Positions 56,413 through 57,959 of a DNA stretch of 64,000 bases are shown in pieces. The notes under the pieces are model-generated. The model was not told the DNA's origin, did not search any database, and saw nothing but the letters and a program-made list of their open reading frames with translations. Position 1 is the first letter of the stretch. The number at the start of each line of letters is the position of its first letter. Location of the stretch: assembly GCA_036172245.1 (NCBI GenBank), contig JAYWIR010000007.1:2418001-2482000 (forward strand), read 5' to 3'. The translations under genes and the position numbers were made by a program. Source of the stretch: Raillietiella orientalis. Taxonomy: Eukaryota.

Positions 56413-57408
56413 ATGTCATCAGGGGATTTTGGTAATACACTGAAGAAATTCAAACTTGTGTTTCTTGGGGAGCAAAGTGGTAAGTTGTTTCCCATTCAAA
56501 GGTAGTATTGGACTGCAACTTATAAGCATCACAAAATACAGGCTTTATTGTCTTTTTAGTTGGAAAAACATCTCTTATAACCCGCTTTATGTATGATAGC
56601 TTTGATCATACATATCAGGTGAGTATCGTCAGACATTTCAGAAATCCGCTAATTCAATTTAGGCAACCATCGGAATTGATTTTTTATCTAAAACTATGTA
56701 TTTAGAAGATAGAACCGTAAGTATGAATAATTTGATATCAGCAGTCTTTTGCTAGATTCGTTTACAACTGTGGGATACAGCTGGCCAAGAAAGATTCCGA
56801 AGCCTTATTCCCTCTTACATACGTGATTCATCAGTTGCTGTAGTTGTATATGATATTACAAGTTAAGATCAATGCAACAAGGTAACTTCTTTATGAATCC
56901 TTTTAGATGTAGATTCATTTCACCACACATCAAAATGGATTGATGATGTGCGTACAGAACGTGGTGGTGATGTTATCATTATGCTAGTAGGAAACAAAAC
57001 AGATTTGTCAGATAAAAGGCAGGTTAAAACTGAGGAAGGAGAACAAAAAGCTAAAGAGCTGAATGTAATGTTTATTGAAACCAGTGCTAAGGCTGGGTAT
57101 AATGTCAAACAGGTAACATGCTAAATTAAGAATCAGCGGATTATTTTTTTGTTTAGCTCTTCAAGAAAATCGCTGCTGCATTGCCTGGGATGGAATCAGC
57201 AGACAATCATCGCAAAGAAGACAGTATCCTCTTAATTAAATACTGCATTTTCTTTTTAAAAGCTGTAAATGATGTGCATGTATATTGCTTGATATTTGCA
57301 ACCACTTTTGCTTGTGCATGTTTTCCTTAATATCTTGTAGTGACTGAAGTGACACTTAAGGATAGCCCTTTGGAAACAAGACAAGAAGAAAATAGATGCA
57401 TATGCTAG
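56413..57408 (+). CDS. RAB6: Rab6 small GTPase, isoform with proximal terminal exon; exons 56413-56479, 56560-56618, 56663-56716, 56756-56861, 56907-57112, 57157-57223, 57341-57408; 208 aa
   Basis: [63 protein letters not shown] and ETSAK motifs typical of Rab6; C-terminal CIC prenylation motif; AATAAA at 57568-57573. Confidence 0.97.
57224..57340 (+). other. Putative U12-type (minor spliceosome) GT-AG intron
   Basis: The donor GTATCCTC is close to the U12 consensus RTATCCTT. A branch-point-like TTCCTTAAT lies at 57323-57331, about 10 nt before the AG, with no long polypyrimidine tract. Confidence 0.8.
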
Positions 57409-57688
57409 ATTATGTTTAATTTTATAATAGAAAATATTTTTACATTGAAGTTATCCACACTTATCATATCTTTATTAATAGCTTACATCTTGTTATTAAT
57501 AATTGTCTTATTTTTGTTGATCTGTGCCTTCTCATAGACCTGCATATGCTTTCTACCTAAAATATTTAATAAACTTTATGCTTTTATGCTTTTAAAGATC
57601 CAAAAGTTGAGAAAATTGCATTATCTAGTTTGTATGTATTTATTTGGTTATCTTCTAATGCTGCTTGTTCATTTATCTTAACATTTAG

Positions 57689-57759
57689 TCATACCATTAA
57701 AACCACAAGAACCACCTAAAATAGATTCTTCTAATGAAGATGGACGTTGTTACTGCTAG
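57689..57759 (+). CDS. RAB6: Alternative terminal exon of Rab6 (IIPLKPQEPPKIDSSNEDGRCYC*), giving a 209 aa isoform
   Basis: AG acceptor at 57687-57688, same phase as the proximal terminal exon, nearly the same length, ends in CxC then stop, own AATAAA at 57887-57892. Confidence 0.8.
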
Positions 57760-57959
57760 TCATTAAATTGAATTTATAACTAAGGGCTAACGAATTTAAA
57801 TATTTAAGCATTGAGGTATTAAATTAGCAAGTACTAAGCTTTATCAACATTTATGTACCTGTGCTTTTATTAGCTTAAACTGACAGAATAAAGGACAAAA
57901 AATTTGAAGTAGTTGAATTTATGGCAAGGTTATTTAATATATGATCATTGAATGTTCTC

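Follow-up and report, generated by a model that had tools for sequence, protein, structure and literature searches.

A Rab6 gene with a U12-type last-intron donor and two candidate alternative terminal exons

Vertebrate RAB6A and RAB6A′ differ by a duplicated, mutually exclusive internal exon that changes a few residues within the GTPase domain. The introns at the tail switch of KRAS and CDC42 are U2-type, and the two tails encoded by each of these genes differ in lipid chemistry. KRAS4A and KRAS4B are described as products of one small GTPase gene whose alternative final coding exons exchange the hypervariable tail that targets the protein to membranes (PMC11636682), and the prenylated and brain isoforms of CDC42 as one GTPase domain joined to two spliced lipidation tails (PMC9868626). 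Here, we analyze a Rab6 gene located in a 64,000-nt stretch of the Raillietiella orientalis assembly GCA_036172245.1 (contig JAYWIR010000007.1, positions 2,418,001 to 2,482,000 of the forward strand). This whole stretch is hereafter called the window, and positions are counted from its first letter. Downstream of a single donor, the gene carries two exons, A and B, each with its own acceptor, stop codon, and candidate poly(A) signal. On balance, we think it probable that the last intron is an old and conserved U12-type intron whose one donor, at 57224, pairs with either of the two tandem terminal exons. The two predicted isoforms would have an identical GTPase domain and different hypervariable tails.

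The consensus given for minor introns comprises (A/G)UAUCCUUU and UCCUUAAC, with 10–20 nt between branch and 3′ splice site (optimum 11–13) and no pyrimidine tract (PMC8199999). Sites of the TTCTTAAC type are classed as U12-type branch sites among the examples printed in PMC7367187. A preliminary description of this DNA regarded U12 introns as seldom alternatively spliced. Such events are, however, no longer considered rare: alternative splicing across minor introns is described as commoner than once thought, affecting ~8% of the annotated isoforms of minor-intron genes (PMC6717393). Alternative 3′ splice sites are listed among the commonest event types, and the regulated choices reported to involve a U12-type site include the prospero twintron, the competing 5′ sites of Srsf10, exon choice in MAPK8-10, and alternative 3′ sites in mouse and human (PMC6717393; PMC8199999; PMC3291851). 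According to the same sources, most minor-intron alternative events are predicted to lead to decay, and the sets of events differ between mouse and human.

The six shared exons of the Rab6 gene form a compact and intact unit on the + strand, from 56413 to 57223. Exon 1 (56413..56479) starts with the ATG at 56413 and is followed by the U2-type donor GTAAGT. Exon 2 (56560..56618), which encodes the P-loop region, is followed by GTGAGT, exon 3 (56663..56716) by GTAAGT, exon 4 (56756..56861), with the WDTAGQE switch II region, by GTTAAG, and exon 5 (56907..57112) by GTAACA. The last shared exon, exon 6 (57157..57223), ends in phase 1 after ...GAC A, its final letters being ...GAAGACA. The five introns that separate these exons measure 80, 44, 39, 45, and 44 nt, and their donors are ordinary. 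Pfam matched the Ras-type GTPase domain (PF00071) in exon 5 (E=4.8e-20) and in exon 4 (E=1.8e-12). Of the 4083 relatives retrieved in a protein search with exon 5, the 120 best were listed and served for the comparison of C-termini; in this list, exon 5 is 91–94% identical to proteins named Rab6 from many animals. Spliced to exon A, the six exons encode 208 amino acids, and spliced to exon B 209, with no internal stop in either case; 177 of 208 residues are identical to those of the Periplaneta Rab6 P0110. These matches support the assignment of the gene to the Rab6 subfamily of GTPases, as the preliminary description had proposed. Both predicted C-termini end in CxC, the motif for double geranylgeranylation, in the form of CIC in tail A and CYC in tail B, each directly followed by the stop.

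The intron following exon 6 differs in type from its five neighbors. Its 5′ splice site, GTATCCTC (57224..57231, + strand), which is common to both paths, agrees with the U12-type consensus at 7 of 8 positions, and the same exon end followed by GTATCCTTT is present in six metagenome loci. U2-type donors normally depend on a G at −1 and a G at +5, and ACA|GTATCC has neither. On path A, the U12-type branch site TTCCTTAAT (57323..57331, + strand) contains an exact match, TCCTTAAT; counted from the intron end, its second A is at −11, and the branch A, at −11/−12, lies at the optimal distance. The AG of acceptor A (57339..57340) closes intron 6A (57224–57340), which at 117 nt is longer than the five upstream introns. 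Judged by these signals, the U12-type nature of the path A intron is well supported. In terminal exon A, the coding part (57341..57408) supplies the TG of the split codon A|TG and then an acidic, insect-type tail of the A class with CIC as its last residues; the stop codon is at 57406–57408. Its candidate poly(A) signal, AATAAA (57568..57573), lies 159 nt past the stop and is weak, the motif being common in AT-rich DNA. Exon A of the window contains no in-frame donor; for this reason, its use as an internal exon joined to B, a form suggested by the Anopheles christyi model P0078, was set aside.

Acceptor B is preceded by the branch-site-like TATCTTAAC (57674..57682, + strand), the second A of which is at −8 from the intron end. 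With the AG at 57687..57688, it would define intron 6B (57224–57688, 465 nt), which contains exon A and its AATAAA. The coding part of terminal exon B (57689..57759) completes the split codon A|TC and continues with IPLKPQEPPKIDSSNEDGRCYC, a proline-rich B-type tail ending in CYC, before the stop at 57757–57759. Its candidate poly(A) signal is the AATAAA at 57887..57892, likewise weak, and ATTAAA also occurs at ~57763 and ~57818. All these elements, that is, the donor, the two acceptors, the two tails, and the two AATAAA, were found exactly where the preliminary description had placed them. Just upstream of each branch-site motif, at 57309–57319 and 57662–57672, we observed an 11-nt repeat (TGCTTGTGCAT / TGCTTGTTCAT). 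It is suggestive of a remnant of the exon duplication or of a regulatory element common to both units, though chance could account for it. At the DNA level, MAFFT gave no alignment of the A and B units in splice-site register. A search for RNA pairing able to steer the choice of tail yielded short AT-rich inverted repeats only and lends it no support.

The U11/U12 di-snRNP (small nuclear ribonucleoprotein) recognizes the 5′ splice site and the branch site together. In the explanation that we favor, it would bind the single donor along with one of the two branch sites. Pairing with the near, near-optimal site TTCCTTAAT would remove 117 nt and make A the last exon. Pairing with the far site TATCTTAAC, which is weaker in the window, would take out 465 nt, exon A and its poly(A) signal among them, leaving B as the last exon. 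Because path B removes the poly(A) signal of exon A, B is possible only if no cleavage has taken place earlier at the A site; the choice would therefore be a race between slow minor splicing and 3′-end formation. Since the donor resembles a U2-type site poorly, both paths would most likely involve the minor spliceosome, and its action on path B in the window is plausible. On this reading, both junctions would be used in the organism, and a coupling of polyadenylation to the choice of tail is plausible.

Chance was considered within the 64 kb of the window. Across its six frames, the open reading frames (ORFs) of at least 20 codons that end in CxC-stop are only two, tails A and B, which lie 351 nt apart on the strand of Rab6 and are no chance ORFs. 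GTATCCT, TCCTTAAY, and TCTTAAC each have five matches in the window, about the frequency found in shuffles; it is thus the placement of these splice motifs, and not their number, that is informative. As a background for the acceptors, we scored the 1526 AG dinucleotides of the AT-rich parts against TCCTTAAC, allowing a branch distance of 7–21. An 8-mer within one mismatch, the class to which acceptor A belongs, precedes 16 of the 1526, and the core.YYTTAAY precedes 34. No other convincing U12 intron was found in the window, and an Rfam search of it returned 0 matches and no minor small nuclear RNA (snRNA).

The C-termini of the best 120 relatives sort into two types, both of which end in CxC. 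The A type approximates ..EVVLKD..GGCAC and the B type ..DL[QR]..P-rich..GC[IM]C. In pairwise scoring, tail A of the window is nearest to A-type tails, the seven best matches of tail B are all of B type, and fish tails are intermediate between the two. In Zootermopsis nevadensis, isoform X3 is of A type and ends in ..PPEDMQEVVLKDTPNEVKNQEGGCTC, isoform X7 is of B type and ends in ..PPEDIAVDLQTHPPQQNDQQDSEGGCMC, and the longest contig is listed with equal size for both. A similar pair exists in Colias eurytheme (P0006, A type; P0005, B type), again with a longest contig of equal size. A-type tails were found in Periplaneta, Procambarus, Homarus, and snails, and B-type tails in Acromyrmex, Penaeus, and an Anopheles farauti cluster of 206 members, while a Pristionchus gene model has both in tandem. 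B-type tails also occur on contigs with an uninterrupted coding sequence (L004, L006, L008, L013, L018, L023, and L024); the exon 6 of one of these, L018, is common to snail A-type proteins. These comparisons support the view that tails A and B are alternative isoforms of one gene in other arthropods, and, judging from the predicted proteins, the distinction between them is kept in insects, crustaceans, molluscs, and nematodes. The two-tail reading of the preliminary description draws support from the isoform pairs of Zootermopsis and Colias and from tails of A or B type in ants, mosquitoes, decapods, molluscs, and nematodes.

Several other observations were made on these tails. Three snail-like sequences (L011, L018, and P0109) have one exon 6 (..MEQKDDKNT) and three different tails, so that molluscs may have more than two alternative terminal exons. 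In P0078 (Anopheles christyi) and P0095 (Pristionchus), an A-type tail is joined directly to a B-type tail; either the predictions were joined wrongly or a third splice form exists. No pair of contigs from the metagenome loci had one coding sequence but different tails. None of 84 loci is a close relative of the window, the best match being 82% over exon 5. A protein search with exon 6 plus read-through gave no candidate, and a scan of genome contigs detected only four distant Rab-like genes, in prokaryote metagenome-assembled genomes.

To compare intron classes at the orthologous site, we examined those 15 of the 80 metagenome loci in which the exon-6 frame does not run into the tail. At exactly this boundary, ...GACA|GTATCCTTT was found in 6 of the 15 (L012, L014, L015, L016, L022, and L058) and GTAAGT or GTATGT in 3 (L030, L048, and L050), the introns of the other 6 being at different positions. 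Upstream of tail A stands TTTTCCTTAAT in L014, L015, and L016 and ATCCTTAAC in L058; TCCTTAAY is thus present in four loci. In the first three, the TCCTTAAT or TCCTTAAC just before tail A is the sole TCCTTRAY of the + strand. The proposal that the donor and acceptor A are minor-spliceosome signals gains from this conservation in other lineages, which extends to six loci for the donor and four for the branch site. Inside the termite-like U12 intron of L012, at 1870–1900, we also noted TCCTTGAT, with an AG 17 nt later and a short frame that does not end in CxC; this is probably due to chance.

Among the 120 protein models, 11 read through the exon-6 boundary, with peptides (..DSIL.., ..TVSF.., and ..QYP..) that fit ACAGTATCCT in three frames. 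Four of the 11 are fish Rab6 paralogues. As a peptide does not fix the DNA that encodes it, these read-through sequences are simply consistent with an old U12 donor common to vertebrates. In the loci with a GTAAGT or GTATGT donor, the U12 motifs are gone altogether. These three loci show repeated U12-to-U2 conversion at the Rab6 site, in which the tails were not lost.

One unrelated locus, L058, has the full layout: its donor is GTATCCTTT, its A exon follows TCCTTAAC, and its B exon follows TCCTTGAC. A single U12 donor with a U12 branch site for each of two exons, as read for the window, thereby recurs in one other locus. Over positions 1400–4450 of L058, the 3′ part of Rab6 is found twice, in inverted orientation, the two arms differing by small indels, mostly in homopolymer runs. 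Such inverted copies would stem either from a genuine duplication or, as an artefact, from a palindromic read or assembly. The donor and both branch sites are present in both arms, as is the position of TCCTTGAC 19 nt before the end of the intron preceding the B exon, the two arms counting as one locus. In the second arm, the B exon reads VPLRPLPLDKDSNSGEESGCFC, then a stop, in a single frame. No TCCTTRAY other than these two branch sites occurs on the + strand of this contig, in 6916 nt. Aligned by eye, its B tail is identical to that of the window at 9 of 23 positions and similar at 4 more.

In L030, both tails are intact behind a GTATGT donor, the acceptors are pyrimidine-rich, and there is no TCCTTRAY. 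Such a locus is what one would expect if the whole module had been converted from U12 to U2 type. The module thus has a U12 form, seen in the window and L058, and a U2 form, seen in L030. The B tails of L058 and L030 have a PL[KR]P start in common, and the IPLKP start of exon B in the window is common to both loci. The sequences of L015 and L016 end before any B exon.

A number of observations weigh against a U12-type donor that serves two U12-type acceptors. In the window, GTATCCTC has C instead of T at position +8. At acceptor B, the branch match ATCTTAAC has two mismatches to TCCTTAAC, its branch A at −8/−9 falls short of the usual 10–20 nt, and TCTTAAC fits a U2-type branch site too; moreover, weak U2-type donors (GTTAAG and GTAACA) are tolerated in the same gene. 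Sites within two mismatches of TCCTTAAC, the class of acceptor B, precede 133 of the 1526 background AGs, so that acceptor A, with 16 of 1526 in its class, stands out clearly and acceptor B only mildly. With 18 occurrences in 14 kb of AT-rich + strand, AATAAA is expected by chance in such DNA, and the two poly(A) signals alone are weak evidence. In L058 and L014, the A branch sites are ~20–25 nt from the AG, outside the optimum. Finally, a B acceptor behind a U12 donor was seen in two loci only, the window and L058, and in no named insect, and indels in several exons of L058 point to an error-prone contig or a decaying copy.

In a rival explanation, the minor spliceosome joins exon A, but the major one makes the 57223–57689 junction and treats the shared GT as a weak U2-type donor. 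The two spliceosomes would then compete over the tail, as in twintrons and Srsf10. We consider this unlikely. The perfect TCCTTGAC before the B exon of L058 argues against it, and in L030, which has a U2-type donor, both acceptors changed character together. ACA|GTATCC also lacks the −1 G and +5 G of the usual U2-type donor. What speaks for such a division of labor is the weak U12 branch match of acceptor B and its short distance, the fit of TCTTAAC to a U2-type branch site, and the use of the weak donors GTAACA and GTTAAG in this gene. Some sites are, in addition, reported to be spliced by both spliceosomes (PMC10853781), and competition between minor and major sites is described for prospero and Srsf10 (PMC8199999).

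It is improbable that exon B is a relic, a duplicate of the terminal exon with its frame still open but out of use in splicing, so that the A isoform alone is made. Compared with L058, its branch site is weaker, its branch A lies at −8, and a 23-codon frame can stay open for a while without selection; yet the AG in the right phase, the open frame, the CxC-stop, and the IPLKP start have all been kept. Exon B provides one of just two CxC-stop ORFs of the window, and B-type tails are kept in insects, decapods, molluscs, and nematodes, including on contigs with an uninterrupted coding sequence. Loss of the minor spliceosome, with both introns removed by the major one and the motifs left as fossils, is very unlikely: it is known from fast-evolving, tiny-intron lineages such as nematodes, tardigrades, oikopleurids, and some copepods (PMC10639083), and the introns of 39–80 nt, the deviation of the donor at +8, and the lack of another convincing U12 intron or a minor snRNA within the window would fit it, but 7 of 8 donor positions and an exact TCCTTAAT at the optimal distance would hardly persist without selection, the converted loci L030, L048, and L050 lost the motifs altogether, and intron 6A is the longest of the gene and unlike its five neighbors in type.

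With the shared U12-type donor as the preferred explanation, a broader proposal can be put forward, although only tentatively. Rab6 may contain an ancient module, at least protostome-wide, composed of a single minor donor and a tandem pair of duplicated terminal exons with one U12 branch site apiece; the activity of the minor spliceosome, racing 3′-end formation, would determine in what proportion two Golgi Rab6 proteins of different targeting are made. If this were true, the retention of the U12 type in many lineages would be explained in part by the requirement that three sites change simultaneously, and the joint change of the donor and both acceptors upon conversion, as in L030, would be accounted for. 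The module would also be among the very few conserved protein-diversifying uses of minor splicing.

More generally, few conserved alternative events of minor splicing give rise to two full-length proteins. One donor serving two U12 acceptors would be a clean system for the study of branch-site choice by the U11/U12 di-snRNP, and the same system would allow slow minor splicing to be examined as a timer against polyadenylation. The two Rab6 tails may direct the protein to different membranes or partners.

The window as a whole is a mosaic of GC content. AT-rich blocks with 32–36% GC are located at 14–18 kb, 46–54 kb, and 56–58 kb, and the remaining 2-kb bins range from 44% to 63%, many of them from 52% to 63%. 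The AT-rich blocks hold gene exons with introns of 39–80 nt. A chimeric contig, which this mosaic brought to mind, was set aside, as the exons of a galactokinase-like gene span AT-rich and GC-richer parts on one strand. This gene (16168–21588, +) has the family motif at 16168–16380 and a weak GHMP_kinases_N match at 18597–19004. A vanin/pantetheinase-like gene lies at 30362–37262 (−), with a Vanin_C match (E=2.4e-28). A word-based protein search with the vanin-like ORF retrieved no relative, and the ESM Atlas gave scores of at most 0.80 to chordate-rich clusters, which we take as a lead only. Three long ORFs in GC-rich DNA, at 4702–5247 (−), 7952–8614 (+), and 27449–28546 (+), contain similar stretches (..CLRGIVA..RDRDAI..MR.AS..) and match no Pfam family; their similarity suggests that they may be copies of a repeated element. 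An isolated ORF at 9072–9464 (−) has a Pribosyltran domain (Pfam, E=2e-07) and looks like part of a ribose-phosphate pyrophosphokinase.

Among the papers listed by full-text literature searches, none connects Rab6 with a U12 intron and none deals with alternative tails of Rab6, although the intron class may be on record in lists of U12 genes or in intron databases. The preliminary description could not check whether the arrangement was already described in related taxa. The tails themselves are: they already stand as predicted isoforms in public annotation. The same searches found no publication on them. The two Rab6 tails thus appear to be implicit in this annotation, and the layout undescribed in print. 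The annotated isoforms (Zootermopsis X3/X7, Penaeus X3, Procambarus X4, Periplaneta X2, and Physella and Biomphalaria X3) agree with the window in gene, in exon-6 end, and in tail types. They are pipeline models in which we saw no indication of intron class, and the window tails are diverged versions of theirs.

Among the systems considered at the outset, RAB6A/RAB6A′, a pair named in PMC3578815, resembles the window by belonging to the same family and by relying on exon duplication and alternative splicing; it differs in that the tail and the last intron are unchanged. KRAS4A/KRAS4B and the two CDC42 isoforms are like the predicted Rab6 products in combining one GTPase domain with alternative tails that would serve membrane targeting. 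In contrast to these genes, both tails of the window are CxC and the shared donor is U12-type. The window is similar to the alternative events reported for minor introns in placing a U12-type site within a choice of 3′ sites. It is set apart from them by two predicted products that are both full-length, by tandem terminal exons conserved across phyla, and, in L058, by a branch site for each exon. On present sequence evidence, the Rab6 case is therefore no new kind of system; it is a conserved and unstudied combination of two known mechanisms.

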